A stretch of 64,000 bases of DNA, from positions 9,798,001 through 9,862,000 of the forward strand of contig CM119371.1 of NCBI GenBank assembly GCA_051294905.1, given 5' to 3'. A program made the position numbers and the translations under genes. This DNA comes from Botryllus schlosseri (Eukaryota). This document shows, piece after piece, positions 8,547-64,000 of this stretch. The stretch's first letter is position 1. The number at the start of each line of letters is the position of its first letter. The notes beneath the pieces were generated by a model. The model made no database searches. It worked only from the letters and a program-made list of their open reading frames with translations, and had not been told where the DNA came from.

Positions 8547-9108
8547 TAACGAGCGCACAAATACATTTGGTAAAAATTGGATTTTTGCTGATAAGGTCGC
8601 GACATGCGGTCATTTCTGCAGTTACATCTGAACAAATCGCACCATTTCAAGATTAAATTGGACTGTATGGCTTGATATTAACGAGCGCAGTACCGGCAAT
8701 AAAACATGACGTCACTGTTTTAATGTTGTATCATGTGTGTACAATGTACAATGCACATGCAATGGCAAGGAGTAAATTGCGTTCTCGTGCGGATATGACG
8801 TCATCTACAGACGACACGAAGTAATTATCAGGTCACAGGACTTTGCATACCCCACAAAATGATGATTCCTTGCGATGGTTACAACCGAGCGATAGTTGCG
8901 GTAGCCGAAGCTAGTGCCGAAGCAGTGGTATCAATGCTATCTGGAGCTTGGAGCCGGAGCTAATTCGTAATCGAAGAGAGCTCCGGAACCGGAGCCGGAG
9001 CAGTTAAAAATTTACGACTGCTCCAAAGCCTTGGTTGAGCCTTGGCGAGGTAGCACGTAGTACTTACATATATTTTGGTGCCAAATACATTCTCTTATCC
9101 CACTAGAG

Positions 9109-19045: not shown

Positions 19046-19149
19046 TCAACGATAAAATATCAATATAGTGGAACGGATATCTTCAAGTGAATGACCATAC
19101 GTAGTCGGACGAGTGGGGAAGAGTAATTCGCTTCCAGAGCCATACCATC
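19046..19149 (-). CDS. ITLN: Intelectin terminal exon: GWYGSGSELLFPTRPTTYGHSLEDIRSTILIFYR*
   Basis: Acceptor tgttttacag|; ends with the intelectin hallmark (I/L)L(I/L)FYR followed by TGA. Confidence 0.95.
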
Positions 19150-25100: not shown

Positions 25101-28100
25101 CTTGATGACTTGAAATTGACTCGTGAATTTTGCTCCGAGTCAAGAGTCAATCCACATGTCTGAAACGCCGAGTCAAGTCAAGTCATACGAAAAAGGTGAA
25201 TCGAGTCTGACTCGAGTCAAGTCATGACTCGAGTCATCCCAACACTGCTATAGTGGTATATACCAATATATTAGACAGTTATACGTTATAAATCTTAATT
25301 CAAGGCTTTCTAAGTCCTGCAAAACCCGGTCATTTATCCCAGAAATGGTGAATGCCAAGCGGGGAAACACGGATACAAGTTTTACAGATCAGCTCTTTGG
25401 TCTGACCCGGTCAGGGTGTCAACATAATTCTTATGTCAAATTATAGATCGTTTACAAATCTGTCGTCATGCCACCGTGGACTCCCATCGTACCTACAGAG
25501 CTTAATATGGAATATTGTCACTGGGTATGGTGAGACTTGTCATGAGGAGAGAGGTTGAATATATGCAAATATGAAAATAAAACGTAGTAGAAAAATATTC
25601 AGAATAACAAAGCTGCGCTTTTAGGTATGTGATAACAATAGCTGAATACGGATGCTTCAGATAACTTGATAATTGAAGACATGGGTAATAGAACTAAAAC
25701 AACACCTACCTGACACCCGGACAAAGGGCATTTGCATAACCGTAGACATTGTACGCTCGAAATTGTAAAAATCCGCTTTGAACCAGAGATCTCATTTCCG
25801 TTGGGATTTTTTCGTTCAATTTATTGATTGATCCATCGTCGAATGTCACTGGCACCGTGACAGTTTCAGAGTCAGACTGAGCTGTAGTGTGAGCAAATAG
25901 ACCGATTAACATGATTCACTTGTCCGCAATTTATCTGCTTGGACAACAGTTTGATAAAAGTAGTTATACCAACTTACCAAACTCAGTGCGAGCGCGCAAT
26001 TATAGCTATTTGTCTGAATTATAATATATAACGAATGTCACACTAAGGTGAGACCAAAAGTGGGAGTCATGCTGGACTTTTTATTTCCAGATCCGGTTCG
26101 AGCTATATATGGACAAGCGCGGTCTCCACGTTGATCTGCAATCGACCCCCCCCCCTATGTGCGTGTACCCAGGGTTGCATTTAAAACAAAAATCAATTTA
26201 AAACAAACACGTTTAAAACGAGGCCCTAAGCATGTTTTTTTATTGTTTATTCACCATTACTCAATTGTGACGTCATAATTTATTAACATTGAGGATTGCA
26301 TTTATTATAGTGTAAACATAGCTCCTTTGACGAAATATCTGTACCATAACTATTGAACCGATTTTGAGGGTTCCAACCATCCCACATCAATACGCGTCAG
26401 CTAAATCGGGTGGTAATTGACCGTAGGCTCATACAACATGTTTTTTGGAATGTAATTACACAATTTATGGCATAACTTTACAACTTGAAAGAAAACACAA
26501 TTTTGTAATTATTTTACTTGTCCTTGTTTAATACACTATTTAAGACATGTTTTAAACAAAGTGTTTCAAAACATCGGCTGTTTTAAATGCAACCCTACTT
26601 GTACCTGTCGGGCTCTGGCCTGCTTTGGGATCAATCTGCACTGACCAATCGCAGCTCTTGATGATGGACTAGAACAGGTTAGTGATCGTTTTCGAGGAAT
26701 GAATAGTTCTATTCAAAAGATTCATCATGCCCCACTAATACTTGCACTGAGACAGAATTTGACATAATTATGATACGCATACATAGCGTCACAACCTTTG
26801 GTACTCATACCGTTAGATGTACACGAAGTCAATTCAGTTGGTACGCAGTATAAACGTTTATTTTTAAGTAAAGTTACTGTCTTCAAGAGCGCCATTAGTT
26901 TTAATGCAAGAAATGTCTTCAAGGAATGCATAATTTTATACTTATATGCGTCATTCCACTTAGTCGCAACCCGCCTTGATCAGTTTGTGAAAGAAAAAAC
27001 AATTGCAACAATCACCTTAGATGTTGCCTTGTTTGTTTGTGGTGTTTTTATTGTTTGTCAACTAATAAATAGTCATTTAGATCAGGCCGATATTCTTCAT
27101 TTCATTCCGTAGTTGCCGACTTGTAGCACAGCTTTATTAGACTCCGCCTACGCCGTGTTAGTGTCCGTAATTTATTAAACATGGACGGAATAGCTCGTGG
27201 ACCACCTTTCTTTCCAAATTTCTGTCCCGTGTTATTTGCTAATCCGCCAATGCTAATAACCCTGTAGGTTATATACGTTTCGACTAAAGTTGGGTTTTTC
27301 GTTAACTTCTTGGTATGTATCAAAACCATAGAACAGGGGTGTCAAACATACGGCCCGCGGGCCGCATCTGGCCCGCGAAGCCATTTCATCCGGCCCGCCA
27401 GACCATTTCTGGATAATTGAAGAAGACGCATGCTAAGATTGCTCAGTTTTAGCAACGGTTTGTATTTATCATATAACATTACGACAGCAATCAGTCAGAC
27501 GCGTTGTAGCGCGTTGCTTTCAATTGTTACGTATGAATGCTGCTAATCAGCAGGAATGAACAGTACACAGTTGCAAATTCGAGTGACTGGCATCAGCCGG
27601 ATGGTGATACGCTTGTCGTTGACATCGCATCTCGCCCGCTGGTGACACAAGTGACGACCGAACGAAATTACACTTAGTTGGTTTGCGACAAATTGCGAGC
27701 TCTTATCTCAGCGTGGGGCACTGGAGATTGTATCGACATGACGACAGTCATATTCCTAACCGACCCAGTTATTATTTTATCACGATATTCGTGGCTGGTA
27801 AATTCACATTCCGAAAATGGGGAAAATTAAACGAGTGGATACCGAGTGCCGAATATTCAAACAAAAATGGACCGAGAGTTTTTCATTCATAGAGGTGGAC
27901 GCGAAACCAGTATGCTTGGTTAGTAATCAGCAAGTTTCTGTCCTCAAAGAATATAATATTCGACGCCACTACGAGACTCACCATAAAAGGAAATACGGAG
28001 ATTTCAAAGGACATTCACGAAGTGACGAAATAAAAATACTTAGGGCCCGCCTGAAGATCAGCAATCCACCTTTACCCGCGGCCGGGATATAGCTGAAGCA

Positions 28101-31100
28101 TCTGTGATGGCAAGCTGCCTTATGAGTTGGTTCCGGCATCCAGGCCATATGCTGATGGAGAGGTGGTAAAAACGTGCATGTTGAAGGCTGCGGAGGTAGT
28201 GTGCCATGAAAAGCGGCACGCATTTGCCAATATCAGCCTTTCAAGAAACACGGTCGCAAATAGAATAGCTGACCTATCAAATGACTTGGAAAGCGAATTA
28301 AAAGACAGAATTAAAACATAATATATATATCGCATTTTCAGTGGCGATCGATGAGAGCATCGATGTCACAGATGTTACCCAACTGGCCATATTTATTAGG
28401 GGTGTTGATCCGTCGTTACAAATTACTGAGGAATTGCTTCAATTCCTTCCCATGACCGACACTACAACAGCGAGTGATATTTTCATCGCACTCGTTGGAG
28501 CGCTTAACAGGGTGGGGGTAGTCTGGTCCCGTGCCATCAGCCTGGCTACTGACGGTGCGCCGTCGATGGTCGGAAAGAAGACTGTCCTGGCCACGAAATT
28601 TCGGGAGAAGGTACGTATCGCGAAGGGCGGACAAGACGTATATTCGAGGGGTATAGCTTATCCCCGCAACGTTAGTATGTTTACTCAGTAAACTGTACGT
28701 GTATGCAATAAGCCAGTAACTTCATTTTTATGTGTGTTGAAACACATTTTACTGATCCGGCCCGCGAGACATTTGAAGGTCTGAATCCGGCCCGCGACCC
28801 GAATTGAGTTTGACACCCCTGCCATAGAACCTCGCGGTGGTACGCGGCGAGAAAAATTTTTCAAACCACTGCTTCCCACTGTGCGAACCGGACTTTTGCA
28901 TTTTCATCAGTACCATTGCTGCATCCCAAATAGCTCCGCTATACCCCACCGCGGTAAGATATAATAACAGTTGGCGTTGTAGAAATTTGATCACAGTATG
29001 TGTAGACCCATACCTTTTATTAGTTCATATTGATAGGTGTAAACACTTTGTAAAACCGAGTCCGCCACCGCATCTAGCTCGGATTGCGAATAATTCATCC
29101 CGCTTTCTCTGCAGTAAGATTACGGTGATATGGTGAACGCGGACAGAAAATTAATACAGTGCAATTAGTTACCGTGAAAGTAATACATATCCGAAAAGTA
29201 CTCGGGCAGGCGATCCGTCAATTATGTATTCAGCATTTCTATAACCGTAAGAAGATGTCGATTCTGATAACCTTCGAAGCTTGGAGGGATGTTTGGAATT
29301 CCACACCTTCGTAAAATAATTTACTGAATTGAGTCACCGGTATTTTCCGTGAGAATAATAAAGTATTTCATAGGATAAAATTAGGCATTGATAGACAGTT
29401 CACAATTAGATATATTCATAATACTTGAAATATATTATGCTACATATAGACGGGAATCACATATAGTCGACTGTAACGACACGCGCCTTCAGATCTCAAG
29501 TATCGAATTTTGGAGTCACGGTGCTTGTTAATATGCGTTGAGAGTTTATCTCCTTCTGCGTCTCCTTCAACACTATCCTTTCTGCTAAATAAAATGCATC
29601 CATCGATGGCAAGTGCTCAAAGGCATCGCGTGAAATTAATTGTAGAACGTCCATAATAGCAGTGATATAGAAAGAAAGCGTACAATCATAACTTAGCATC
29701 CACACATTGCATGTCTGAAATTGATTCCATATTGATATAAGGGAGCTCTGTAAAGGACTTCATTTTCTGAAGCCGCAATATTATATTGAGTTCGAGTATA
29801 TATTGTGCTCAATGAGAGCAACATAGTTGATCCCGACTAAACTGTAATCATCCTTGGACGTTTTCAATATCAAATATTTTTGGTGTTGAGTGATTCAATA
29901 TTTCAGAATACTAATGAAGACAGTAAAATATTAATTCGCATACTTGATATTACAATATCGGTTCATTTGGAGCATTGGTTCCCTAACTTTTTTGGTGTCT
30001 CGGAGCCGCATTTCAAATTTCAGAGTACGTTTGGGGCCGCACGAATACACTCACCAAAGGTATACCAAATATTATGGAGCATGAAATCACGTACCAACGG
30101 ATAGCAACACTAACAAGAAAAAATATACACAAATCAATTTAATGTCCAACTTGGCATTGGCTTTGAGCTTTAAGAAGCGTGTCAAAGCGAAGCGTGATTG
30201 CAGAGAATGCAGTAGGCAGTAGCTGCTTGAGGTGGCATCGGTCAATCGATTGCTCTTTTGATTTTTCATTCTGACCATTTTGTCGAAAAGTGCTTTACAT
30301 ACGCAAGTTGATCACAATAGAGAATCGTTTATTTGGTCATTGGTAATCAAGTTGTGATAGGTTCCGTATGGACTTGACTGCAAAATTCCAGTAAGTCCAC
30401 ACTTTTAAATAATACTTGAGCTCGATATCTGACTGCATGTCTAGCAACTCCAGTTGAAAATGACTAGAGGCAGTGGCCACATTAACTGCAATAAGATTTG
30501 AAAACATTTTCATAATGGGCAAAAAACTCATCAATAAAGTTGAAGTTCAGCCTGTTGTATGCATCAAATGATCCATTGGTGTGATGGCCATATACCGTTG
30601 GAAAGTATGTTGTCACACCGCCTGAACTTAAGTCTGGGCACAAGCTGACTTAACTATGAGTGCTGATCCCAACGCATTTGATTGTGAGTATACTTTTTGG
30701 CGTGACTTGAGTAACGAAATCGTTGCTGAGTAGAGAATCGCTACTCGACAGCAGAGAAATTGGTCTCCACCCTTAATTACAAACTTTAGACTCCAAGCCA
30801 AGCAACGGCACTTTTTGAAAATGAATCTAATTTTTTGTTGTTATACATTGATTATTCATCATTTTTGTAGGATTTTCAAACGTCAACGGAAGACGTATGC
30901 AGCTCTCGAAGCCGCGGTTGGGAATCACTGATTTGGAGGGTTTCACGAACTGAAACCAAGCACAGTTAGGCTAAATCATTCTTCTCCTTCCACTTTTGCC
31001 ACAAGTTAATCGTTATGCCACTGAACCATGATGGTATTACTATGGATGGGGTTACTATGCAGGTGAAATAGCGAAGCAGTTTTATACAGACTACTTCAGT

Positions 31101-34100
31101 TAAAATCGAAATGAATAAAATTATTCTTATTTCTAGGTGCTAATAAAGAAATGCATCATGACCCAGCAAAGTTATAAAAATGGTGATCAAAAATGTATCG
31201 AGTTGAATATTTTAAATTGTGGGTCTTGATGTCACAAAATAACATGAAATTTTTGTGATGTCATAACTAATTGGTCTTAGTAGAGAGTATAGCCCGACGC
31301 CCGTCACAAGCAGGATATCTACTAAAGCAGACCTGGACAATGTGTGGCCCGCGGGCCCAATGCGGCCCGCGATTCTGTTATATGCGGCCTGCGCAAAGTT
31401 GCTTGGAATTCAAACAGGAAACCTACTCAATATTACTGCGCGGAATAAAACCATAGTCTGTATAAACTGAACTGAAAATTCGCTTGCTTTTAAGCCTGTC
31501 TAGTTCTTTAATATGCCGAAATTACGAGCCTACGTACCTCGCATGCGATTGCGTAATCCGGATTCACAATATTGCCGAGGTAGCAAATTATTTCGTAACA
31601 ATCAGAGTCACAAGAAGACACAAAACCCCTTTTTTGCCAAATCCCTAATTCGTAAAACAAGTCAATTAATGCCCGTAATTACTACGAGTCATTAACACCC
31701 ATAAAGAATGAACGGGCATGTGGAAAAACACGGCCGACAGTTGGAATTCAAAGTAGGTTTCGAACACTAAATATTTAGAGTCAGGAGTAAACCCGTATTT
31801 TTAGTAGTTCCTGCCGAGCAGGTCGCCGTCTTTAGGGAGTGTAATTTAAGTCGGTCTTATGCCAACACACGAAGACATACGCTCGTTCAGAGAGGGCGAA
31901 TTTTAGAAGGACTGCAAGCTTAACACAACAACAAGGCTATTTTACCAAACTGAACGCTGTTCCGAAGGCAGTGACCAAAGCAATAGGATTTGTAGTATCC
32001 CAAATTCATTTTAATTTCTTGATAGAAAAAAAAGCTGATAGCGGTGTAACGAGAGTTCAAAATATGTCATGTTTAACATTGTTACAAATATAACGGTAAA
32101 TAATTATTTAATTAACCGTCACTTTCTCATTCATAATATCAACACTGAGAAGCATTTATTACCAGTGTCATTCTCTGCTTTCAATTTAGAAATACTATTA
32201 ATACGGTAGAGAATACAGCTAAAATTTTGACTTGGCCCGCCAACGTATTTTCTGCTTCTCATTTGGCCCACGGAGAAAAATAATTGCTCACCCTCCCCCT
32301 GTAATACAGGCAGCAACCAGTTATTAAATAGCACGAACCTTTGTACTCGCCACGTAGAAGTGGAAACGGCATTCCGTTTTTAGTTTCTGGTTCGGCTGAT
32401 AAAACTGGATCGCACTGAAGTAGATTTGGAAGTCGCCAAGCTGTGTGTTACCCTCGAAGTAGGTGATATTGCTGTTCTCGTAGCGAATTCTATACGAGTG
32501 CACCTGTAAAATAAATTGCTCCTCTACTTTTACAGATGACGATTTCCTCTAATCCCGGGCTGTCAAACATATGGCCCGCGGACCTCATCCGGCCCGCGAA
32601 CAAGTTCGAGTAAATGAAAATATTACGTGAATTAATCCAGCACATATTTGACGAATGTTTAGATTTCAGGAAGAAATACTTTCATTAAATAGCCCCTCAA
32701 CACAACAAATGTCGAGTATGTTCATAGGTCACATTAAACCACCCGACCGCGGTGTTACAGTTCCACTACTCCCCATTAGGAACCAAGTTGCTGGCATTGA
32801 CACCCGATTCAAGAAACGTAGAAGGTACACACTGATGTCAGAGGGTTGGGAAAATTGAAGCAAAAATAATTCTTCGCAGAAACGAAAACGCCGATGCGAA
32901 GCCGCAATACGCAGATTAAATGGAGAATAAAATGATCGCGAGATATAATTCAAATATTTGATATTACACTGCTGCAGCTTTTTTGACTCAAAAGGTGCCC
33001 ATTGTAATTTTGTCAATTCCACAGTTTGCGAAAAAAAGGCGTTGCTAAGGCTTGTTAACATGGTATTCAAGTGAAAAAAAAACATGGATTTTGAGGCAAC
33101 ATTTTAGAATCATTTGACTAATCCGGCCCGCGAGCGGTCTGAAAATCTGAATCCGGCCCGCGAGGCAAGCAGAGTTCAACACCTCATCAAACAACACAAC
33201 AGTCGGATATTCTGAGAAGTGGAACCTATTTATCAGAGCGTCAGTCACATAGACCTTAATGCGCAGAGTACACACTTAACACGACTCTGCCATCCATCAC
33301 TTCTAACAAATCGCTCCATGTCACCTACTTACATATTGAGCTGGCAATACCCTATCCCCAAACCCAATATATTGACCGAACAAATGAGTGGGTGACTAAA
33401 AGAAATGATCAATACCATGAATTTTATATTCATGTCATCGAAAATAAACAAGTCAAGCATAGGCGTCAGCGAAAGTCGTGAAACTACACTATTTACATCT
33501 CTCAATTTCTGCTTGATCATGCCTATGGTGTCAAAGCATATTATTTAAAATGATTTCGGTAGGTAAAAGGCAAAGACTGATTTCTATCGTTTATTTCACT
33601 TTAGGCTAATTGTCTTAAAAAGTGCTATAATTGTAAAATCATTTCCATCACATAACTGTAACGTTTAGTAGATACGTGCTCCATCATGGAAGACATTTTT
33701 TCAGACGGGTTGCATCCAAGGTACAAAGCTCCGAGTCACAAGTCCTTCTCACTTTTATAGTTTTGACTTGAGTCAAGTCGAGTTACTTCCAGTTCAACAC
33801 CGAGTCAAGTCCGAATGCAATTCCGCCGAGTCCGAGTCATGATATTATAACTCGAGCCTGAGTCCAAGTTATTGTTTTGACTGTTCAGTTTCCAGTCAGT
33901 CTTGTTGAACCTACTTTCTATAACTCTGTTTGGTGATATCGAATGCTTTGCATTTATAATAGACTAATTTCATCACTATTAGCAGTTTCTGGTCACATTT
34001 TCAAGTACCAGTACCAGTAGACAAAATCATAATAGTGTGGTTACCAGTGTTGGGATGACTCGAGTCCTGACTTGACTCGAGTAAGACTCGAGTCAACTTT

Positions 34101-37100: not shown

Positions 37101-40100
37101 ACTACCTGAAAGACCATCTACAGTACACAAAGTCTGATTTTATGGCGAAGCCCTAAGCCGTTTTCTAAGCGTCTATCGGTCTTGCCAGTGTTTGGGCCAT
37201 TGCACGGTAAGGTAATATACCCATGCCCAATGCCCATTCATATCAGCTGATTCTCCCTCGACAGAATGATGTTGCCAATGTTGCCATCGCCAAAGCCGTT
37301 TTAGATTGTGAGGAATAGTGATGTCGGGCACAAGACAATAGTTTGTTTTGAAACAACAACAATATGTTGAAACTGTATTCAATTTGAGCATTTCAAAACG
37401 CTTTTCATAGCATTCTTCCGAAATATCAAATCAAGTCGCGGGCCGCATGCGGTAGGCCTAGTGAGCAACATCCATTGAGGAATAGGAATTTAATTTATAT
37501 TAGTGTGAAACGTTGAGGTCTTTCGGCAATGGCTTTGCGACGCGACCGATTGATTATCGAGTCAGTACCTCCATCTTTGAATCATTATTACCACCATGGG
37601 TGGGAGCGTATCGTCATATTATTACTTCGCCGAAACTAAAATGGTGGTTTACTTGGAATTTACTCACTTGTAGTCTATAGTAGCTGCTTTCTTGGTTGTC
37701 ATTCCTCACAAAGATTAGTGTTGTCGATGGAGGAGTAGAACTACTGAAATAAGTTGATCCGCATGGAAAGCTGGAGGTAAAAAGATAGATTTATCTACAT
37801 GCAACTTTGTGATTGACAATAATTTTTACTATCGTTCTATCTATCATTGGTTTATTAGCAATTTTATCAGTTCAATACACCACAAAAATGCGATACAACG
37901 AATGGATAGGTAGGTGACGAAGCGACTTGGAGTAGTCTATGGAATCAGACACCCACCTTGGTCTAGTCTAGGCGATGTAAAGAGGAGGCATGCACACTGA
38001 ATGACAGTGAAAGAAGATGGGGTGGCATGTCATGGAAGGCGAATCGATAGGTCAGGTCGTGGTCCGTTTTTGATGGTATTGGTGATATATTGATGTGCAA
38101 TGAACCAACTGTATTATAACAGGAATTCTCAACCCGCAGACGTTTATTTGTAGGCAATTATACTGTTGATATGGTATTGTTACATATTAATTTATCTACT
38201 TAGCTCGTTCATGGCAGCATGTCTGTTACTCCACTGCTAAAACATCAATGGGTTGTGGGTTCGAGTCAGACCGAGGCTGACTCCAGAATTTCTACCAAAG
38301 TGTTGTAGGTTTATCTAGGCTCCTCCTCGCCATCTTATCTGTGTAAACGATGTCCTAAAAAGCCTAGAAGTGGGCCGTGCTCTATGTCGGCAGTTACGCG
38401 ATCAAAAATGACGAATATCGGCCTGGTGTGAATGACCATTGCAGTCGACAAACACCATGAGTTCACAAACAACAACAACAACCGTGTCTGTATTGTTGTG
38501 ACTCATTCTTTGACTGTTACAATCAGGACTCGCCACGACTGGCTTGAACAGATCGCGACAAGGAAAGAGAAATTAGCGACGAATACTGGGTTTGCAAGTC
38601 TGCGTTGAACGATGAATTTGCTTTCGCAGGTATTCAAAGTTTAAAACGACATCACCGACAGTTTGATCTAGAGTTCGAAAATAAACATGGACCTGGTCCA
38701 CCTGATCTTTTAAAAAAAGTGTTGCTGGTGTCAAGCCCGGCAATCCATCTTTCGAGGCAATAACGTTAAAGAGGCATTGTTCACAATTGCTTGGAATATC
38801 GTTGAAGCCAAGAAGTCAAGTATACTATGTGGAATTTTAAGAAAGGCTGTGGGAACTCATTGATTCCAGAATTTAGCAACAACGACAACATCACCTGGCA
38901 AATGTCGATCTGTTATCGTAGTTTCGGAAACACGTTGCCGCACAGGCTACTCTGACCTTGCATTGGAGGAGCTCACCGACTCACCCACAGATATTACGTA
39001 GCTAAATAATCTTACGTCATTTTTTTAGAGTGGGCCCATTTGAAGAGGAAATGCAGGGCAAACGTGGGAGGGGACAGTCGTTCTGCATTGAGGGGCTTTT
39101 ATCGAAGACCAGCCAAAAACATCAACTTGACAAAGCTGACTTGCGCCATTGGAAGATGACTAATTCATACAGAAACAGTAATTTCTAACTTACGAACGCT
39201 GTTCAACAATGCTTTAGAATGCAACAAAATCTATTAAACGTCCCTTACGACTGGTAAATAAAGAAAATTTAATACAGCCTGCAAATACATGGTAATAATG
39301 TTCTGCGCCCCCGCAGCCTGCTTTGCTGTTAAAATGGGACCCGTTATACATGATATGTTGATAACCCCTATATTATACTCCGGTAACAACACCACTACGA
39401 CACTGCCAGTCGCTTTTAGTTCTCATGAAAGGATAACTTAACGTCGTATGGATTTGTATACTCCTGACACTTTAATTTCCATGGTGGTGGCCAGAAACCA
39501 TCCTTACCTTATAGTAAGGGGCACTCTAAAATGACGCTCTGGCGGATCTGATACCTTGCTGGCAGTGTTTGCATTCCTCGGAGCCGCCGATACCATCCGC
39601 TTAATTGTCATTCTTGGTATGGTCGTTAGTATTTAACTTTCGTTTCCGCGACCCAAGAGAATAGGCAAACGACCTTATTGTGGTCCCGATCCCTAGTTTG
39701 AAACCCTTGCAATGGATATATTATACTATATTTTCTGATAGTCAGTCAGTCAGTCAGTCAGTCAATCAATAAGTAAAGTTATATTGATTCGGAATAACTA
39801 TAAAATGCGATATCATACGAACTGTCTGCCTGCCTGTAGCTTGGCAAGAATGGAGATCGGAGGTTGAACAGTAGCGGAGAACAACTTCCACAACATAAAA
39901 ACGATTTTGCTTGCTTTTTACACAGTTTCGACAATTTTTTGACCTAACGCTACACTCACGACAAAATTCCGACACTTTTTGACACATGTCAAATAATAAT
40001 CGCTTTAGTTATGGCACAATGAACAGTTCTTCGTTCGTTTCAACAGAAGCTGGACCATTAGGTTGAAACAATGAGATCCATGCAGCAGTGGCGGCTCGTC

Positions 40101-49100: not shown

Positions 49101-52100
49101 GTCTTTATTATTTATTTGTGATGTCATGGCTAAAATAATAAACAAGAATCAATTTGAAACAAACTGATTTTTGTTTTGAATGTAACCCTAAAGACCACCC
49201 CAAATACCACACATTTTCGTATTCCATACAGAAATTTCGTTACATCCCATAGATTACTTCCATAACATGTCATTCCATACTACACTATATATGCCCTGCT
49301 GGTGAAAGTAGAGAAAAAAGAATACTTACGTCACATTCCTTCCGTAGGTCGCATAGCCAGACCACCTGGTGCTCCTGATATACACCTTCATAAATAAATA
49401 ATGACTTCATTTCACATAAATTAAAGTTTTAGTCCTACACATATATACTTATAATTTTTAATCACGATGTTTCTTTCTTCTATGGTTATGATAACAAGAA
49501 TAAGGTGATATCGTTAAAATATAATAATCAGTTAACTATGATTGTCATAAAATTCTTTAAATCAACTATATTTTGGCATTTTTCACGAAGACAATAGGAC
49601 AATATTACTCAGTGCTCTATTGCAGTGTTTGTTGTTGTCACGGTGTTTGTCGACTACAATGGTCATTTACACCAGGCCGACATTCCCTATTTTTATTACG
49701 TAGTTGCCGACTTGTATCACGGCCAACTTCTGGGCTTTTTGAAGACATCGCTTACTCGGATCATATAGCGAGAAGTAGCCTAGGTAAGCCTCCCACACTT
49801 CAGCAGGAATTCTAAAATCGACCGTGCAATGATTCTCAACTTTTTTCGTTTTGTGACCCGGTAAAATTCGAAAAAATATTTTGTGGACCGGTGGACTTTC
49901 AAAAATTGAAATCGACCAAAAATATAAAGTATGCAACCGTTTTTCTGCATATATATGGTGCTGAAAAGTGACATTTTTAGAGTTTTGGTCGTAATTAATT
50001 ACGTTTATGATGGCATCCATGTGATTTTGCAGTAGTGTGTCTGCTGAGTCGACCGCCGGGATTCGTTTACAGTCTTTCGCGCCGTGGATTTAACCGACCA
50101 CGCTAACTCGAATAATATTCTTTTCTTTGACAATATCGGGAGAAGAAGCGTTTCGGAGTAGAACCAAACACTTTATCGCGCTACCTCTCGCATTGGTCAC
50201 TATCACCAAACGTAGGCTATAATCGGGCTACTACGAATACATGGTAGGCAACGGCACGAAAACGCCTGACAACAGCTATACCCGGAAATCCACAAAATCA
50301 GCGCCGAAAGGGCACTTCGGCAGCCCCCACCCCCAAAAAAACGATGATCTCTGGCCCACCACAGTTGGATGAGGGCACTTCCTGCACGATAAAAAACGCA
50401 AGTTAGTGACTATGGCGACCACGAATACCGCAACGTAAGCAACAACGTACATCAGCAAACCAAGAGGCGACGCTCAATCAACATATATAACGAACAGAGC
50501 ACGGGGCGCCTGATCAACTGATGACAATAATCCCTACACTAAACCCTGCAGATTACTGTAGTAACAGTACAGAATACCAGGACAGCGAGACTCGGTGCCA
50601 GCCGTTTAGGCCCCTGTGGACAATTAAAAATGAATATATCGGTGTTTTCGGTCATCAAAGGCTCGTCCTTTTTGAACAAGGTTTATTCGCTGCTGAAATT
50701 TCAGCACACTTTTCGGAGTCCCATGTAAGCTGAAACCTAATTATGTATCTGTCCGTCGTGGTGCGATAATCGTTGATGCCAAAATGCCTATTGTAAGAAA
50801 TCATGCGTATTTCACGGGGAAGGGGCGCCCAATGATCAAAACAATGAGTTATGGCAAATCGCGCAATGCGCGAAAAAATGAAATAAGTTGACTATCATTC
50901 AAAAGATGCATCATAATTTATTTTCATTCACAAAATAATTGTCGGCTTCATTAAAGATCGGCCACCCTCACTTGGTGATATATCTGGGGGAGGCACTGAT
51001 TACGAATATGACCTTAGTTTTTTTCAAATTAGCTCTTGTTTTGGATATAACCATTGGGGCTATATTGATCAAAATCCCCCATTTTTGCTATAATAGCTAG
51101 ATAGAAAAGCGGTTTAGTCGTACTATGAAATTTAGACATTCAATCTACTTGTTATTTTTACACACAGTAGACTATTTTGAATCAAAATACAGCAACAGCA
51201 CTATATAGGGGTATTAGATTTATCATAGTTATAGACTTTCACGGATCATATAGGCTACTTAAAAAAAAACTCCAGTCATATATATAAGTTTTTACCTATA
51301 GATACTCAAATACCGTGGCAATTATTCAATCAGTTTAACGTTAACCACCTATTATAAATTGGAAATAATCAGTTGGAATATAACATTATTAAATTATATT
51401 GAAGCACAATTGTTTTCCGTACGATTTTCGCTTGTAAGCAATTTAGTTCAGTTTCTCAAAAGGTTCCAGCAATGGTCTGCCATAATATGCTCATCTCAAC
51501 TGCCCTGGTAACTTTCTTTTGATGTTTTGATGACTTGGCGGAACCTCTTCTCTTCTTAATAAACAATAAATTCGGGAAATATATCAAGATGACTGAACAA
51601 GAATTGAACTTTTATGCCATGTTTGTTCCAAGTTCTCCATGTGCAGCTACGAATGTTCGGACCAACTATTTGTAATTGGGTGCTTTGTAGTCATCTAAAA
51701 AGTTTTCTTTGCTACATCTTAGGAGATATTCAATGTAGTGAACTACCTATTCGAATCGGTAATCCATCAAAGATACCAGATTTGGGCTTCTCGTTTGATA
51801 GGTATACTAGGAATCAGGGCTGTGGAGTCGGTAAATTTTACCAACGACTCCGGCTCCGACTCCGACTACACACATTTTCAATATACCGACTTCGACTCCG
51901 ACTCCGACTCCTGGGTCTTTAAACGTTCCGACTTTGACTCTGACTCCCGACTCCGACTCCAGCATTATTACCAATTTACTTCATTGTCGGTTGAATGACT
52001 ATCATACAACCATTAAACATATGCAAACATATGATAAACGGTGATATGCTAAATTTTTTCATTGTGGCTCAGGTCGAATTATCCACTATGCAATTAACAT

Positions 52101-55100: not shown

Positions 55101-58100
55101 TTAAGAATCACTGATTTAGAGTATAGAATACTAACCTACAGATAGATACGCAACTCCCGTCGTTACGCTCGGGCAAGCAGTTGGACTTGTTGCTGAGCAA
55201 TCTAAAAGTACGGTTACCATACGTCCTTTTTAAAAGGATTTTGTCCTCTTTTTTGACTTTTTTGAAAGTGTCCTCGGAGGACGCCATTTTGTCCCATTTT
55301 TTGAGATTTTTGACTCTTTTTAAGAATTTTGGTCATATTTATAGCAAACTGCGACTGATATGCCGTAAATCAGCTCCAAAGTGACGCTCCGGTGGGTATT
55401 CCGGGAGCCAGGCGGGAAGTTGACCTTTTTTTTATTTTAGTCAACCGATCTTAAAGTGGAAAAAGTTGACCGTTTTTTGATAATTCTTCTCAGGTTTTAC
55501 AAGTCTGAAAATTCTGAAAAAGTTTCCTCTTTTCAGATATCCAAAATATGGTAACCCTATCTAAAAGGAGCATAATAGATGGTTTTATAGCTTGCGACCC
55601 TTGTGCTGAAATTTAATGAAACTTGTCCTAATTGACAGCTACTGTCGCTCTCATTCCAAAAATACGAATTGAAATCGCGTCAGGGAAATGGAACCACCTA
55701 AGATCAACCCTGAAAGTTTTGAAATCGGCATTGTTTCAATTATGCTTTCAGATTGCTCAGCAAGAAGTGTAACTGCTTGCTACAGCGTAGCGACGGGAGT
55801 TGCGTATCCATCCGTAGGTTAGTAATGTATATTTAGAGCACATATAGGTACAAGTTAATTCGAGGAAATGTTAAATCAGGGGTCGCCAACTCAAAACGGG
55901 TCGCGGGCCACTTTTCAAATTTCGTAGCCGCCGCGGGCCGCATTAATTCAATATCGATATAAAGTGGGCAACCACTTTTAAAACTATACGTCAGTACAAC
56001 GCTGTGCTACCTAACATAGGCGATGGGTATAGTGACCAAAAAGTAATATTTTATTATAGGAATAAAAATACAACTAAGGATCACTGTCATCAATTTTATT
56101 TTATTTTGAACTCCGAGCTGTGCACGATACCTGCAAACGCTTTTCAGGGCTAGCGATATACTTAACTAGTTGAAAGACCATCCCCACTTGATGCTTAATC
56201 TTGTGGGTACAAGGCTTAAGCCAGTGGTTCTCAAACCTTTTTAGACATGCCCCCATTTATTATACTGAAAAATTTCGCGCCTCCTTATCGTCATATCACA
56301 AAATGCATCCACAATGCTAGCAACAGGTAGTTTGATGGCATGGAAGGTTATGAATGTTGATGAGAGAATTCTATGATATGAATTCCGGATTATACACAGA
56401 GTAGTACAGTAACTATAAATATGAAATCGAAGCAAATCGCAGCTCCGCCCCTCTTTATCTGCTTTCGCGGCCCTATAGGCGGACGCACCCTCAGTTTTAG
56501 AGCCACTGCCCTAAGCCGTTTTCTAAGCGTCTCGGTATTGGCAGTGTTTGGGCCACTGCACGCCAATGTTAGCATTTCAAAATCTTTTTTATCATTCTTC
56601 CAAAATCTCAAATCATGTCGCGGGCGGCAAAATATGACCTGACAAGCCACATGCGGCCCGCGGGCCGCGTGTTGGTGACCCCTGTGTTAAATCAAGTGAC
56701 AATCCCGGTGATTGAATTTATGACAGACAAATGGATATGGTTCCTCGGCTCTGAAGACTTTGTCATATCGTACCACTCGTCTACCTTGCATGTCGCATTT
56801 CACTGTTACATTTTTGTAGTGTTATGTTGATATGTAATGTATACGAATAAAGATTCTCTCTCTCTCTATAGTTAGAGCTAGCATGAAAGATCTTAAAAAT
56901 ATTTTGTAACAAAGTGCTGTTTAACGTTGTTTTCTCGCTGACCTCCTATGTTTGAAAACAAAACAACAGTGGTTCCCAACCTTTTTGTTGTCACGGACAG
57001 CTTTCGTCAAATTAATTCTGCGGACCCCTGCTGAAATTTTGCCTGAAACTCAATTAACACACTATTGACTATTATAATAATTATGCTACTAAACTATTGT
57101 ACAGTGTCTAACTGTTGACGTTGTTGTTGTTGTTGTTGTTGTTTATTAGGGATTCGGGCTCGTTCGTGAACCTCTCTTGCATTGCCGGACTTTGTTCGCT
57201 ACTGCAAGTTAATGTGTGTGCGATGTCTATGAATTGTGTGAAGACTATAGTGATGGAATCGCCCTTAATAGAGGGACGGGCGAATATGGGGAAGGGGGGG
57301 TTCCCCGGGAAAGGGTGAGTTTCTCTCATCTTATGAAAAACTCGCCAGATTTAAATATATTTCTTCTGGCTGCGACCTTGCTAAACCTCTTCGCGTTACG
57401 CATATACCAGAAAAGTAAGTTTAGGAAGTATGCTTCATATTGAAAATGTGGCACGAGAAATTCGATAAACGATGATCCAAGTCTTCTCTGTGATAATACA
57501 AATTCAAAATACTTACATAATTTCCATGGGAGCTAAACATCTCGCGATCGGTTATATAATGCCTGCCTGGTATCATGTCATAGTCAAACCAACCAGATAT
57601 CGAATTTTTAACAGTTAGATCCTGGGAAACGTTGCGCAGCACCATGGCATTGTAATCTAAATATACCAATAATATTGTTCAAATTCCTACAATCATATAA
57701 TTCAAGCTCCCGCTGTTACAATTACGCTCTTTTCGCACTTTCGATCTCGATTAGGAAAAATGTCTTATCAGGCGCGTAGCCGCAGCCGAGAATAAAAGAG
57801 GATGTTTTGTCAACAGAGGATGTTTTGAATTATACCAGATTTTTCGGTCTAATTGTATGCAAAAAGGCTTCCACAACAAGTATCAGATAGTCTCGCCCGA
57901 GTTAACAACTCTATGCGTTTATATCTACATAGCCATGGTCTACTAAAAGATGGCGCCAATGACGTATGCTACGATTGATAGAAGCCTCAATACTTCTTTT
58001 CGTAGGTGCGCTTCTAATTACTGAGAGCGAGTTGCGACATCGACAATCGACAAAACGCCCGTGCAGACTAATATCGTATCAGAACCAGATTCACGAATGT

Positions 58101-61100: not shown

Positions 61101-63499
61101 GAAGAGCTCAGATTACAGAATTGCAATAGATGAAGAATTGGCACGGGCTGCAGAGCAGAGATGAAGATGGATTATTCTTGGCGGGATTGTTCTTTCCAAG
61201 TAGGCTAATGACAATCAGAATGGCATTTGAATTGATAAACTACGGTATATTGCTTTATAGCGAAGCAGGAAGTAGCCTATATCGTTGCGCGTTGCGGGAT
61301 GTAATTGATTGGTGGTTATCACAACATTGGCTTTGACGTTGTTATGTAATGATTTACAGTTGTTTCTTAAAGAAAGCAGAGATGGCGCTAAGTCAAGGTA
61401 AATAAATGTATGAAATTTACACAGAGCGTGATTCGTTTATTGATACTTATATACGTTGTAATTGCTCGTTTTTTGCCACTAATCTCTGGACGATTTGTTC
61501 GTGCTATCTTTTATCAATTCGCATTTTCCGTATATATTAGAGTTTCGAATTTAATTTCACACCCGGACAGATCATCAATTCTCTATGTACCAATTTGCCA
61601 ATCAAATTCAGTTTTCTGCGTTTCGGACAGAATCCCAGGTCAAACATTGTCCGGTAAACGGAAGTCACGAAATTGCTACCTCGATTTTCAAAAACGCTTT
61701 TCTACCAACACTTTTCTATCAGAAGAAATGAAACGAATATGAACATATAAAAAGCTACCAATGGGAGGTGATCCGATCGGGAAGTGATCACTGAAAAGAC
61801 TTTTCAGGTTTCCCCCGAAGCTCTTCAGAAATCGATTAGTAGTTCGATATTTCATTATGGCTCCTGATTGCAACGATACCATTTCCTGCTGACCTTGAAC
61901 ATGCCACACCATCACGTCAGATGCCTGAAAAATTATCGGTAGGATCTAAGTCACACAAGTTGGCATTCATTTTAAGAGCACCGTTCACACTGAAAATACA
62001 TTGTTGTGCATATATGTCGTGATTTCTGGCCAGGAATCTCACGCCGGGAATCTATTGCTATGCAATACCAACATATCTCAGGAACAATTTAACATAAGCC
62101 CAAATTGTGCGTAAGCTTCAAGACATATAAAATATTAACAGATAATTACATTGAAAGTATAGGGATCAATTTACCATACGTTACCATATGCACATAATTC
62201 ATGAATGTAGGGAGGCGTTGCAATAGTTTATTATGAAGATTGGTAATTTAACAGAAATTATTCGGTCGCTTTACCAATAATTCGGATCTATGGATTTAAC
62301 AAATTGTTAAGAAAAAATTTCCATATTCTGGAAACCCGGCGTAATTTATAACTGCTTTGGCACTGCTTCATTCTGATTCTCGGAAAGAGCATTCCGTCAA
62401 GTCCACTTACATTCATTTTGTAATAGCCTTGGCTTTTAAAGTCATCTTGCAAGCACTCACGAACGTGACCAAACGTCACCTTGTTTTCCCAGTTCGTTTT
62501 ACCTGGCAACATAGCGAATATAACCTCAAGAGCCTGTTGGAGGTATAGATCTTCAATATGAAATTGAATGGTGTATTCATATTGAAATGTGACCCGAATA
62601 TTTGACTGACACTCGTCAGGGCACTCAGTGGTAATTGTCAACAATTATAGTAGAGAGTTTGAAAGAGCATTGTACATCAACATTCGTATCACAATATATG
62701 ACCTCACCGGCAAGGAATATTTTATATTCAGGGTGACTAGATTGCCTAATTCAATGTACAATTTTCGATGATACACGGTTACATCGAATAAACTATCAAT
62801 ATTTATCACAAATTTTATTCTAAATATCCTGAAATTTTTAATTACGTACCGTTCGCGTTACCGCGGGTTAAGAACGATTCTTTTCGGCGGTATGATATCG
62901 AATATTATTGCTAAGTCTCGCAATCACAGTATCAATTCTCGATGATATGCTGCGCCATGCAACTACTAGAAAGACTCGCGATTTCACTATTTTATTGCCG
63001 CCTGACCCACATGTCAAAAAGGTTGCACATGCATGCACTGAACCAAACCAGCTATTTGGTATTACTGCCATTTTCTATTACATTTGGGTACGGGAATTTT
63101 CCGTTTAAATTTTAACAGTCAGTCATTGTAAAATTAAATTACGGGCAACAATATTTACGGAAAAACTTTTTCAACTTCACCTTTCCAAGAGTCGCAAAAC
63201 TGCTGCCAGGACCAGGCCAATATTTTGGTATAGAATATATTTTAACACTGCAAGCATTTTTCCAAGTCTTTCGACTGTACGAACTTCACACTGCAACCTT
63301 CATTATAGCTAGTCAATCGAATAATATGTTTGTACTGCACTGTGCATTCTATTAACCCCGCACCTGTATAATGCGAAGACCTGTCCTTGATGTACGTCGA
63401 CCATCTATCATCGTGGGTACATTTTGCAAGTATGTCACTTTCATGGATACTCGCCACCAGTGTCCAACCACCACCATCTGTTTGCATGTCACAATAGAC
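19046..63499 (-). CDS. ITLN: Intelectin-like (X-type lectin, fibrinogen-related) gene, 13 coding exons in window, with a ~237-aa inserted domain; N-terminus incomplete
   Basis: Hand-spliced GT-AG exons with consistent phases give [22 protein letters not shown]...CTHDDRWS...NWENKVTFG...DDFKSQGYY...VWHV...[insert]...VPVTFDDG...GFLQFRAYN...ANALCPGVR...VCVGG...CGDFAGW...STILIFYR*. This is colinear with the human ITLN1 motifs [57 protein letters not shown], CGDF and LLFYR. Confidence 0.9.
19684..19769 (-). CDS. ITLN: Intelectin exon: VTSMQPEYVCVGGVSNDISQFGTCGDFA (phase 2-1)
   Basis: Matches VTGCNTEHHCIGGGG...QCGDFSG; acceptor ttctgtag|, donor CAG|GTATCT. Confidence 0.92.
20224..21165. mobile_element. 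hAT MITE with gtgaac/gttcac subterminal repeats
   Basis: TIR tagggatggtgtgaac/gttcacaccatcccta; TSD gtagattc/ctagattc. Confidence 0.85.
21180..22376 (+). mobile_element. EnSpm/CACTA-like transposon right end with an accessory-ORF exon (21370-21630)
   Basis: Ends in tttttacagtg (CACTGTAAAAA terminus) after acaag/cttgt subterminal repeats. The exon after ttgtttcag| reads DNSASPYPIIHL...FTYALALILSLHWVFNIQFARGANNTLHFL, resembling the SAMD3-like accessory ORF of animal EnSpm elements (recalled, not searched). Confidence 0.6.
22377..24300 (-). mobile_element. CR1/L2-clade LINE, 5' half only (ORF1 plus APE endonuclease of ORF2), frameshifted
   Basis: ORF1 coiled coil plus LEFHGIP and WINNGKVLIRK; ORF2 MHMNVRSL, ITETRL, GGVGIYV, LYRHP, IILGDIN, PTRVT...LLDHI, DHYPI, KPWLTPGIL. 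Cut at the EnSpm terminus; no RT. Confidence 0.9.
24317..25247. mobile_element. hAT MITE with gagtcaagtc subterminal repeats
   Basis: TIR cagtgttgggat/atcccaacactg; same family as 34045-34968 (opposite orientation) and the truncated copy at 36379-36800. Confidence 0.85.
25710..25881 (-). CDS. ITLN: Intelectin exon: AQSDSETVTVPVTFDDGSINKLNEKIPTEMRSLVQSGFLQFRAYNVYGYANALCPGVR (phase 1-2)
   Basis: Matches IPVVYDFGD...[23 protein letters not shown]; acceptor cacactacag|, donor AG|GTAGGT. Confidence 0.95.
26170..26597. mobile_element. hAT-type MITE (sibling of 18519-18968)
   Basis: agggttgcatttaaaac TIRs, near-perfect 8-bp TSD. Confidence 0.8.
27334..28821 (+). mobile_element. Internally deleted hAT (SPIN/GTF2IRD2-like) element, copy 2
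   Basis: Near-identical to 9109-10594, with a different perfect TSD (ccatagaa). Confidence 0.95.
29014..29108 (-). CDS. Inserted-domain exon 7: ESGMNYSQSELDAVADSVLQSVYTYQYELIK (phase 2-1)
   Basis: Acceptor cttactgcag| after a 64-nt intron, donor AAAG|GTATGG. Phase 1 rejoins the intelectin frame at 25881. Confidence 0.85.
29173..29306 (-). CDS. Inserted-domain exon 6: VWNSKHPSKLRRLSESTSSYGYRNAEYIIDGSPARVLFGYVLLSR (phase 0-2)
   Basis: Acceptor attattttacgaag|, donor CG|GTAACT; phase matches the next exon. Confidence 0.8.
29973..30930 (-). mobile_element. Charlie/SPIN-type hAT deletion derivative
   Basis: cattggttcccta...ttgggaatcactg; perfect TSD atttggag; minus-strand relics FQLELLDMQSDIELK and KSNRLTD. 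Confidence 0.8.
31328..32301 (+). mobile_element. Degenerate SPIN-like hAT element
   Basis: ggcccgcggg subterminal motifs; decayed N-terminal transposase segment (KPV...EQVAVFRECNLSR) at ~31790-31860. Confidence 0.6.
32339..32503 (-). CDS. Inserted-domain exon 5: VHSYRIRYENSNITYFEGNTQLGDFQIYFSAIQFYQPNQKLKTECRFHFYVASTK (phase 0-0)
   Basis: Acceptor tttattttacag|, donor AAG|GTTCGT; 165 nt, open in the required phase-0 frame. Confidence 0.85.
32556..33184 (+). mobile_element. MITE sharing termini with the 9109/27334 SPIN-like elements
   Basis: gggctgtcaaacatatggcccgcgg...atccggcccgcgag...agagttcaacacctc. Confidence 0.65.
33333..33395 (-). CDS. Possible in-frame cassette exon: SPTHLFGQYIGFGDRVLPAQY (63 nt, phase 0-0)
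   Basis: Strong acceptor catttcttttag| and donor |GTAAGT. Frame-preserving, but not needed for gene continuity. Confidence 0.4.
34045..34968. mobile_element. hAT MITE (gactcgagtc family) nested in an older related element (~33705-35110)
   Basis: TIR cagtgttgggat; perfect TSD gtggttac. Confidence 0.9.
36800..37452. mobile_element. Charlie-type hAT MITE (caggggtcgccaac family), copy without the nested insertion
   Basis: Homologous to 55877-56684 and 44573-45448; empty ccctaagc site at ~37151. Confidence 0.7.
37668..37770 (-). CDS. Inserted-domain exon 4: FPCGSTYFSSSTPPSTTLIFVRNDNQESSYYRLQ (phase 2-0)
   Basis: Acceptor tttttacctccag|, donor |GTGAGT. The paralog at 1783-1885 has no indels and 4 synonymous differences. 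Confidence 0.85.
38560..39370 (+). mobile_element. Highly degenerate Buster-type hAT transposase fragment
   Basis: Relic motifs SLKRH, IAWNIVEAKK, LALEELTD (cf. LxLDESTD); ends in gttgataacccct. Confidence 0.5.
39741..39764. repeat. (GTCA)n microsatellite
   Basis: Six units; the paralogous site at ~3551 has only gtcagt. Confidence 0.9.
40086..42018. mobile_element. hAT Tip100-like non-autonomous element containing ~200-bp imperfect tandem repeats (~40500-41050)
   Basis: TIR cagtggcggctcgt/acgagccgccactg; perfect TSD ccatgcag. Confidence 0.9.
43166..43361. repeat. ~200-bp hairpin (inverted arms of ~85 bp)
   Basis: aaatttggttcaattccaacc..ggaagcggagtta pairs with taactccgcttcc..ggttggaattgaaccaaattt. 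Confidence 0.85.
44573..45448. mobile_element. Composite Charlie-type MITE with nested MITE at 44883-45180
   Basis: caggggtcaccaac/gttggcgacccctg; perfect TSD gcctatgc. Confidence 0.85.
46120..46830 (+). repeat. Tandem array of four ~180-bp units inside a Charlie-type hAT element (~45510-46890)
   Basis: Units begin atgtttgtatc at ~46122, 46300, 46480, 46658; a single-unit homolog sits at ~60695-60870. Confidence 0.9.
48198..48913 (+). mobile_element. SPIN-like hAT remnant with C-terminal dimerization relic
   Basis: KFYES...KMRK..MALLVLFVSKYIRGQTISTVNISKTRMHANITDVHVQSLPRVS resembles LVLFGSTYICEQTFS...LTDxHL; gggcaac termini. Confidence 0.65.
49330..49385 (-). CDS. Inserted-domain exon 3: VYIRSTRWSGYATYGRNVT (phase 0-2)
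   Basis: Acceptor tttatttatgaag|, donor |GTAAGT. Length and splice sites are conserved in the paralogous copy at 11342-11397. Confidence 0.85.
51455..51720 (-). mobile_element. Decayed DNA-transposase C-terminus, probably Chapaev/CMC-like
   Basis: With stops and a frameshift it reads NFLDDYKAPNYK..ELGTNM.IKVQFLFSHLDIFPE...EEKRFRQVIK..KESYQG..DEHIMADHCWNL, matching the recalled KVHFLHSHLDFFP..GERFHQDI..RYQG..MMADYCW family. Superfamily assignment is from memory. Confidence 0.6.
51815..53788. mobile_element. hAT element with (gactcc)n subterminal repeats; nested Charlie-type element at 52710-53540
   Basis: cagggctgtggagtcgg...ccgactaggaatccctg; TSD ctaggaat/ctagggat. Confidence 0.8.
54162..55113. 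mobile_element. Charlie-type hAT MITE
   Basis: cagtggttcttaacctt/aaggttaagaatcactg; perfect TSD atttagag. Confidence 0.9.
55129..55824. mobile_element. TIR element (~40-bp TIRs) interrupted by a Blackjack-like MITE at 55209-55559
   Basis: tactaacctacagatagatacgcaactcccgtcgttacgct / agcgtagcgacgggagttgcgtatccatccgtaggttagta; the nested MITE has TSD tctaaaag. Confidence 0.8.
55877..56684. mobile_element. Composite Charlie-type MITE with nested MITE at 56222-56508
   Basis: caggggtcgccaac/gttggtgacccctg; perfect TSD tgttaaat. Confidence 0.85.
57113..57330 (-). mobile_element. 3' end of a non-LTR retroelement with (AAC)n tail
   Basis: The minus strand ends in AATAAAC followed by (AAC)n; unique-looking body upstream. 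Confidence 0.5.
57517..57621 (-). CDS. Inserted-domain exon 2: DLTVKNSISGWFDYDMIPGRHYITDREMFSSHGNY (phase 0-0)
   Basis: Acceptor gtttcccag|, perfect donor |GTAAGT, 105 nt open frame in non-repetitive sequence. Confidence 0.8.
58921..58970 (-). CDS. Inserted-domain exon 1: VIYKHQETVSTFIQGFK (phase 1-0; 5' boundary uncertain)
   Basis: Donor AAG|GTATGC. The phase-1 acceptor gaaaatctag| is the simplest join to the previous exon, but other AG options exist upstream (58987, 59046). Confidence 0.55.
59570..60330 (-). mobile_element. RTE-like LINE reverse-transcriptase fragment (pseudogenic)
   Basis: MAKILRFFGIP..IMALY...VLQxDNLAPFxFVVILDFALR...PAYADDLALL...AQHLINQLEASAALIGLQINAKKTEVL; in-frame stops. 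Confidence 0.9.
61759..61924 (-). CDS. ITLN: Intelectin exon: ASDVMVWHVQGQQEMVSLQSGAIMKYRTTNRFLKSFGGNLKSLFSDHFPIGSPPI (phase 0-1)
   Basis: Matches AKDLGIWHVPN...LLRYRTDTGFLQTLGHNLF...YPV; acceptor atttttcag|. The donor G|GTAGCT is plausible but weak. Confidence 0.9.
62411..62502 (-). CDS. ITLN: Intelectin exon: GKTNWENKVTFGHVRECLQDDFKSQGYYKMN (phase 1-0)
   Basis: Matches intelectin [10 protein letters not shown]...[10 protein letters not shown]; acceptor tgttgccag|, donor |GTAAGT. Confidence 0.95.
63364..63499 (-). CDS. ITLN: Intelectin exon: [45 protein letters not shown] (phase 0-1)
   Basis: Fibrinogen-like CDM..[9 protein letters not shown].HE signature; acceptor tttgtgtgcag|, donor G|GTGCGG. 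Confidence 0.95.
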
Positions 63500-63723
63500 C
63501 TGCACACAAAAACTTATCAGACTGCGTCCCTTTTAATTTAATTGCCCTCTCAAACTCACTAAAGTGGAAAGAATTATTCCGAAACATATGTTATAAATTA
63601 TTTACTCTGTCAAATTTAAAATCGTGCCGTTACGTGTGTTCGTTAACTTAACTCGTCGGGCTATATGGGCTGCATGAACATCAGAGTGAAAACACATTGT
63701 GATTGATTTATTAGCCCAAATAC

Positions 63724-63884
63724 CAAGATATCATTACACCGACATTGCAGCGGCTTATATTTGTGAATCCATATGTTGGCTTCTAAGCATTCGCTAAAAT
63801 ATTGCTGAATTGTTTCATCCTGTGGCGGCCAAACTGGGGCTAATGGATGATTGCACAATTCTCTATCTCGCCAAGAGATACATC
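63724..63884 (-). CDS. Candidate upstream exon of the intelectin-like gene (GCISWRDRELCNHPLAPVWPPQDETIQQYFSECLEANIWIHKYKPLQCRCNDIL)
   Basis: Acceptor ttttttgaaaatcag|, open Cys-rich frame, donor |GTATTT in phase 0 that joins VYCDMQ. It does not clearly match the canonical PRSCKEIK segment. Confidence 0.35.
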
Positions 63885-64000
63885 CTGATTTTCAAAAAAT
63901 TCTTGCTAAATTTACGTGACTGCACATGGTGTGATTTGATCAATTGAACTATCGAATCGAGTTACGTGCGGCATTGATGACGGACAACGACCTTGATAAA

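Follow-up and report, generated by a model that had tools for sequence, protein, structure and literature searches.

An intelectin gene of Botryllus schlosseri with a putative intron-bounded domain in a surface loop

Intelectins are compact single-domain lectins. On the minus strand of the Botryllus schlosseri DNA analyzed here (the window, 64,000 nucleotides of contig CM119371.1), the two halves of an intelectin gene are separated by exons that encode a further domain, which we call the module. This arrangement raises the question of what the module is, how it came to lie within a lectin, and whether it is always part of the product or, as an earlier note on this DNA supposed, is skipped at times so that the gene switches between a plain and an extended lectin.

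The gene keeps a single open frame, with GT-AG sites, through its exons as we would splice them (Table 1); further 5' exons lie outside the 64-kb window. Its whole lectin part aligns to intelectins and, judged by sequence, appears to consist of a fibrinogen-like N-terminal part and an intelectin-specific C-terminal part (exon Ea matches PF00147 at E 3e-4, under the cut-off). Among named proteins, those of Styela clava are the closest, with at most 50% identity in the lectin part; across the ascidian relatives, the module is ~23–31% identical. The insert comprises six exons (693 nt, 231 amino acids), the intron phases around and within it being 1, 0, 2, 0, 0, 2, and 1, and an intron-phase listing of the gene has the whole module as its sole 1-1 block. 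The seven exons counted previously did not hold up: against a profile of homologous inserts the six-exon model scored 153.8 bits, compared with 89.7, 110.6, and 133.6 bits for three others, two of which had seven exons. Addition of module exon 2 accounts for the step from 133.6 to 153.8 bits. The lowest-scoring model, which has seven exons including 48991–48909, a short 32503–32452, and 31644–31538, also has an open frame, but two of its exons are non-homologous and one is cut short. As this model is in frame and yet is rejected by homology, an open frame and matching phases can evidently arise by chance here. A candidate exon at 56812 (4.3 bits) was rejected as well; it has no phase 0 acceptor.

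Table 1. Exons assigned to the intelectin gene, with positions in the window and the basis of each assignment.
Feature	Position	Strand	Intron phases	Basis
Exon Ea, intelectin N-half (fibrinogen-like start)	63364..63499	-	0 to 1	open spliced frame
Exon Eb, intelectin N-half	62411..62502	-	1 to 0	splice sites and frame
Exon Ec, end of N-half	61759..61924	-		XEEL E 9e-6; human ITLN1 E 6e-4
Exon Ec donor (likely)	61759	-	1	weak; donor comparison
Module exon 1, first helix and W-F-D-Y motif	57517..57656	-	1 to 0	profile of homologous inserts, 26.8 bits
Module exon 2	49330..49385	-	0 to 2	donor GAC/GTAAGT; conserved copy at 11397-11342
Module exon 3	37668..37770	-	2 to 0	profile, 9.8 bits; alignment; copy at 1885-1783
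Module exon 4	32339..32503	-	0 to 0 (symmetric)	profile, 30.5 bits
Module exon 5	29173..29306	-	0 to 2	profile, 40.3 bits
Module exon 6, last helix	29014..29108	-	2 to 1	profile, 7.9 bits; donor AAG/GTATGG
Exon C1, start of C-half	25710..25881	-	1 to 2	phase 1 acceptor at 25881; human ITLN1 E 6e-4
Exon C2, sugar-site loop, CxGG and CGDF motifs	19684..19769	-	2 to 1	
Exon C3 to stop codon, ending IFYR	19046..19149	-		sequence and frame

Protein models of relatives, from which rather than from genomes their intron positions are deduced, agree indirectly with these exon limits. Three truncated Styela models (P0017, P0008, and P0005) end within one residue of the first three module intron positions, and the 53 amino acids equivalent to module exon 4 are missing in the Styela isoform P0012 as compared with P0056. 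In another Styela clava record, P0034 (XP_077971262.1), the equivalent of module exon 2 is joined to that of C2, both in phase 2, which leaves both domains broken; this join may be either an annotation gap or a real deletion.

Several other elements occur in the window. Module exons 2 and 3 each recur on the minus strand downstream of the stop codon (Table 1), with splice sites and frame intact and with 8 of 56 and 9 of 103 bases changed (synonymous to non-synonymous codons, 1 to 5 and 4 to 5, respectively). They are contained in a collinear duplicate, ~80% identical, of the region at ~50.1–37.5 kb, and neither module exon 1 nor the N-half was found again between 19046 and 11397; the second copies may represent a duplicate truncated at its 5' end or, instead, an alternative 3' half. 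Two 1.5-kb copies at 9104–10601 and 27329–28828, which are 98.8% identical and have broken frames, look to us like a hAT-type transposase, and one of them sits in the phase 1 intron at the 3' end of the module. A remnant in the C1-C2 intron (24346–22356, minus strand), with ORF1-like and endonuclease-like frames, is presumably LINE-like. At 46118–46814 a 177-base unit is repeated in tandem (3.9 copies, 88% matches), and a related copy lies near 60341–60857.

The module is predicted to be an autonomous, mainly β fold. When the module of the relative P0061 was modeled in isolation, it folded with a pLDDT of 83.4 and a pTM of 0.87. In the model of the full relative P0043, the module is placed at high confidence between helices 183–203 and 404–419, and the lectin part is of low confidence; residues 20–503 of this model nonetheless superimpose on human intelectin-1 (PDB 4wmq) across both halves (Z 15.5, rmsd 3.2, 215 aligned), suggesting that in P0043 both lectin halves close into the intelectin fold. 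The best matches of the module among solved structures are the supersandwich domains of glycoside phosphorylases and hydrolases (5h3z, 8rf9, 7w2t, and 7fe3), the best at Z 9.2 (rmsd 3.7, 178 aligned) and the next at Z 8.8, 8.5, and 8.2. At 5–10% identity, with Z slightly above usual background and no Foldseek match at E 0.001, we regard this likeness as middling and draw from it no homology, activity, or function.

Sequence collections name no family for the module. Pfam returned none for five stretches of the insert and the rejected exon, nor for the inserts of 12 relatives, and NCBIfam and PHROGs each gave one weak match, in one of 11 members. A PDB sequence search had nothing under E 0.6, word-seeded searches with single exons gave no match, and in the Atlas there was nothing for module exon 1 and only leads under 0.9 for P0061.

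Both lectin halves match human intelectin-1 (PDB 4wmq and 6usc), Xenopus XEEL (4wmo), and the lamprey serum lectin (7e1e) by sequence, and the Botryllus gene retains the CPG, CxGG, CGDF, and C-terminal FYR motifs. It differs from these lectins in having the 231-amino acid module at the position of human Gly197, a linker devoid of cysteine, and a longer C-terminal loop. In human ITLN1, E262 and H263 belong to the sugar site, and C199 is bonded to C259. The equivalents of C259, N260, and H263 in the Botryllus gene are M, Q, and Y, while E262 and Y297 (the latter counted from the C-terminus) are kept; the equivalents of residues 274 and 288 depend on the alignment, W288 being ambiguous. N260 is a sugar-site residue according to the available part of PMC9434060, as are E274, W288, and Y297 according to that of PMC12800186, on whose W288 and Y297 the Gly197 numbering (chain number plus 7) is anchored. 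Taken over N260, E262, H263, E274, W288, and Y297, a site of the ITLN1 type does not appear to be present in the Botryllus protein. Among plain intelectins, the linker cysteine and the C259 equivalent are either both present (P0037, P0046, and P0040) or both absent (P0006, P0009, and P0035). This pairing agrees with the C199-C259 bond and would place the module beside the calcium and sugar loop. The module-bearing P0022, P0061, and P0075 keep the cysteine right after the module along with the C259 equivalent, whereas the Botryllus gene has neither.

The insert is not peculiar to Botryllus. Of 61 collected proteins, 18 match it at E < 1e-3 (best 2e-25; Styela clava, Phallusia, and unnamed records), and a Ciona protein from outside the profile, P0076, scores 165.5 bits. 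The same architecture and insertion site are seen in database predictions from Styela clava (LOC120334985, LOC120342979, LOC120347880 with two modules, LOC120328764, LOC120335122, LOC120328249, and LOC120335029), Ciona intestinalis (LOC100177669), and Phallusia (CAB3262707 and CAB3262805). To judge from these homologies, the insert is an old domain common to at least three ascidian genera, and its architecture is already in databases as uncharacterized proteins. In a 23-row tree built from lectin columns, the presence of the insert requires one change (support 83 of 100, not starred). The Styela protein P0054 has tandem modules of 223 and 229 amino acids bounded at the same places, and the residues that follow its lectin N-half and each module are E, G, and E, whose codons start with G, as a phase 1 G/GT donor favors; the introns of P0054 itself are deduced from the protein. 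Several Styela relatives have an internal hydrophobic stretch. Among the unnamed records, P0047, P0061, and P0075 are collagen-tailed intelectins that carry the module, a collectin-like build, and P0061 also has a signal-peptide-like start.

Literature searches listed no paper on intelectins with a domain inserted in them or with an isoform that skips one, and the accessible text of PMC12448946 has no match for the terms sought. According to the accessible text of PMC10980280, ITLN1 and ITLN2 are expressed in the ascidian endostyle, the form being unspecified.

Relatives of the module also occur outside animals. A search with a three-sequence alignment gave 49 loci in bacterial genomes, 7 in metagenomes, and 6 viral ones, and 58 of these 62 non-animal loci hold a near full-length copy of the domain, with two copies in eight ORFs. 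No intelectin half showed in any of the ORFs retrieved. Foldseek found four viral models at E < 0.001. Relatives in large surface proteins of bacteria and viruses, such as L034, L037, and L014 (these three with a secretion-system sorting domain), L059, and the BFVD model A0A8S0HZG8, share the length of the module and its helix-sandwich-helix layout, but there the domain sits among Ig-like, LamG, or subtilase domains; Ig-like or similar domains were found in eight of nine ORFs scanned and a secretion sorting domain in three. The loci L008–L062 together describe a family of ~220-amino acid domains, for which no Pfam model was seen, in large proteins from Bacteroidota, Verrucomicrobiota, and further phyla as well as from giant-virus bins and phages.

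The link between the Botryllus module and this microbial domain is indirect, resting on the profile of its clade and on P0022, P0061, P0075, and P0076. These four score 83–121 bits (P0022, P0075, P0061, and P0076) against the non-animal profile, as compared with 6–24 bits for the other Styela proteins and 7.6 bits for the Botryllus insert (shuffled sequences, up to 3.3 bits). In a profile-profile comparison, the clade of the Botryllus insert matches the non-animal homologs with a probability of 97.5 (E 7e-12) over module residues 3–226 of 231. In an unrooted FastTree phylogeny, the animal copies form one side of a branch (support 98), with viral and unassigned copies between animals and bacteria; judged by this tree, no donor of the domain can be named. 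A different association occurs in P0037 and P0072–P0074, records of a 753-amino acid protein with a C-terminal plain intelectin domain on contigs of ~100 kb from several collections, the source of which is possibly microbial or viral.

These relatives set the domain ends independently of the gene, and the phase 1 introns fall 2 and 5 residues outside them. When 11 introns were placed at random, 1-1 introns lay at both ends in 0.5%, 1.3%, and 2.9% of trials (within 5, 8, and 12 amino acids, respectively), figures that overstate the surprise since the model ignores the phase 1 bias of glycine linkers described in the available part of PMC8001218.

How secure the two boundaries are, and what the gene makes of them, can be considered together. 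The 3' boundary is firm as far as sequence goes, with the frame fixed by homology: the donor of module exon 6 scores 4.6, the best of six GT sites near the end of that exon, and exon C1 starts after the phase 1 acceptor ACTACAG/CT. At the 5' boundary, the phase 1 donor TTG/GTAGCT at 61759 has a score of -1.1, the lowest of the 11 donors of the gene and the best of nine GT sites in its reading frame, and a phase 0 acceptor at 57621 competes with 57656. It is conceivable that this boundary has been misread, a phase 0 donor (61745, 61712, or 61706) being joined to 57621, so that the module is not of the 1-1 class. The consensus at 61759 is poor and the acceptor at 57621 good, and loss of the first 12 module residues lowers the profile score by just 1.3 bits. 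The phase 0 donors nevertheless score lower still (-2.1 to -6.6), and their joins reach 57.4–59.7 bits on the profile as compared with 61.9 bits for 61759-57656 and 60.5–64.3 bits for phase 1 joins that keep the FP motif, differences of only 2–7 bits between rivals; the highest, 61735-57656 (phase 1, 64.3 bits), has the worst donor (-11.5). Joins to 57621 would also delete the conserved first helix. In addition, the homolog P0002 (77% identical) is frame-shifted with respect to the gene directly after a shared I-G-S read-through, which makes the stretch past 61759, where the phase 0 donors would need coding sequence, unlikely to be coding. Counting from the [FY]P aromatic, position +7 holds a residue whose codon starts with G in 11 of 14 insert-clade rows as compared with 4 of 10 plain rows, a non-independent count because the rows are related; human ITLN1, XEEL, and the lamprey lectin have a conserved glycine at +7, and the split codon of the Botryllus gene is at +8. 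We consider a misread boundary very improbable and 61759 the likely donor. The proposal that both bounding introns are phase 1 thus stands at 25881, and 61759 is its best candidate at the other end.

Joining 61759 directly to 25881 keeps the frame to the stop at 19046, and the joined form has 15 residues between the aromatic of [FY]P and the first residue of TVP, VIP, or AVP, as many as human ITLN1 (4wmq chain 183 to 199) and XEEL (166 to 182). The equality with the human linker noticed earlier is therefore borne out, the 14 residues given then depending on other anchors. The match is composed of one residue more before the junction and one fewer after it; plain intelectins differ by up to three residues here (gap 10–13), and notional skips in paralogs give linkers one or two residues shorter than the human one, as counted on the alignment. 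Because any clean insertion at a single intron site would leave a linker of equal length, the equality is not a sign of skipping. A switch by which the gene makes an extended lectin and, by skipping the whole module, a plain one is compatible with this join, with the 1-1 class of the module, with the weakness of the donor at 61759, and with the skipping inside the module that is annotated for P0012. Against it, the skip needs an intron of 35,877 nt past six exons, while the longest other intron is 11,559 nt, and the product would not be a canonical intelectin because of the M, Q, and Y at its sugar site. No whole-module skip occurs among 16 records of six Styela loci, which include one C-terminal fragment and one record without the 0-0 exon and in which 90% clusters may hide such a form. 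Reads were mapped for four (X1, X4, X6, and X8) of 24 runs, none of the 24 being recorded as RNA, on 47500–64000, where exon depth is at most ~5x and repeats fill the tables; among the 15 of 84 joints and 24 of 1587 loose ends listed, none is at an exon boundary, the reads being too thin to test junctions. For module exon 1, the depth of its bin in X8 is ~3x if all bases are on the exon, similar to the 0.7–4.6x of the lectin exons (a few reads); X4 and X6 have nothing in this bin or in the two Ec bins. The X1 sequence over exon Eb is unspliced and has four differences in 267 letters, and so X1 behaves as DNA of this species. We judge the switch improbable. It is scarcely credible that the module exons are a separate nested gene and the lectin halves always joined directly. 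No read ties the module exons to the lectin halves among the joints listed, and the partial second copy of two module exons downstream would suit such a gene, but full-length proteins of three ascidian genera have the module in line between or after the lectin halves, and the intron phases chain without a gap.

As to origin, intron-mediated insertion is likely, on the sequence evidence, to be how the module arrived. The introns coincide with the ends of the domain, and in P0054 the domain is duplicated as a unit. In four plain records that resemble genomic read-throughs (P0016, P0021, P0033, and P0036) the linker is uninterrupted, which would suggest that the intron accompanies the insert. In the class 1-1 mobile modules of exon shuffling described by Patthy (PMC8001218, in its available part), extracellular location, a mainly β fold, phase 1 introns at both ends, a glycine linker, and tandem duplication are features shared with the insert or, for the last, with P0054. 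The insert differs from them in being nested inside another domain rather than lying between domains, in spreading ~225 amino acids over six exons, and in that neither a second animal architecture nor a Pfam, NCBIfam, or PHROG family was found for it: among 1802 candidates of 333–1061 amino acids in a word-seeded search for the module outside intelectins, there were three matches, all with PF00147. The symmetric exon shuffling proposed before is accordingly favored by the phase 1 introns at the domain ends and the tandem P0054; no animal donor was found for it among these candidates. Alternatively, a piece of DNA without introns, of bacterial or viral origin for instance, may have been inserted in frame, both phase 1 introns having been gained later at glycine-rich linkers. 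Relatives of the domain were found only in bacteria, viruses, and unassigned contigs, and introns in glycine-rich linkers are most likely phase 1 according to the same part of PMC8001218, the insertion site being a conserved glycine. This account requires two independent gains, one at each end. Moreover, what is doubled in tandem in P0054 corresponds to the intron-bounded unit, and the animal copies are not nested inside the bacterial set in the FastTree phylogeny. We regard it as unlikely, though a serious alternative.

We therefore favor, with a probability of roughly 0.6, the reading in which the Botryllus gene belongs to an old tunicate intelectin subfamily with a domain built into the surface loop equivalent to Gly197, inserted as an intron-bounded unit, its six exons being usually included. 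A self-contained domain of ~225 residues, probably a β-sandwich with a helix at each end, would have entered this loop once and early between two phase 1 introns, most likely by intronic recombination. It would loop out while the lectin halves form one intelectin fold, and its exons would be included as a rule. The product may be a cell-surface or secreted recognition protein, perhaps anchored in the membrane, with a remodeled calcium and sugar site and, beside it, a second glycan-binding or adhesive surface; calcium-dependent glycan binding is a prediction of this reading. A bolder version, in which a microbial-surface domain became a class 1-1 module beside the sugar site in early tunicates and is still a skippable six-exon cassette, seems to us improbable; if it were true, one gene would make pattern-recognition receptors of two kinds, with one site or with two, and switch between them.

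A subfamily with a large domain beside the sugar site would widen the range of the intelectin fold. It may also provide a new class 1-1 module that has microbial relatives and whose origin can be dated, which would bear on how domains turn mobile in animals.
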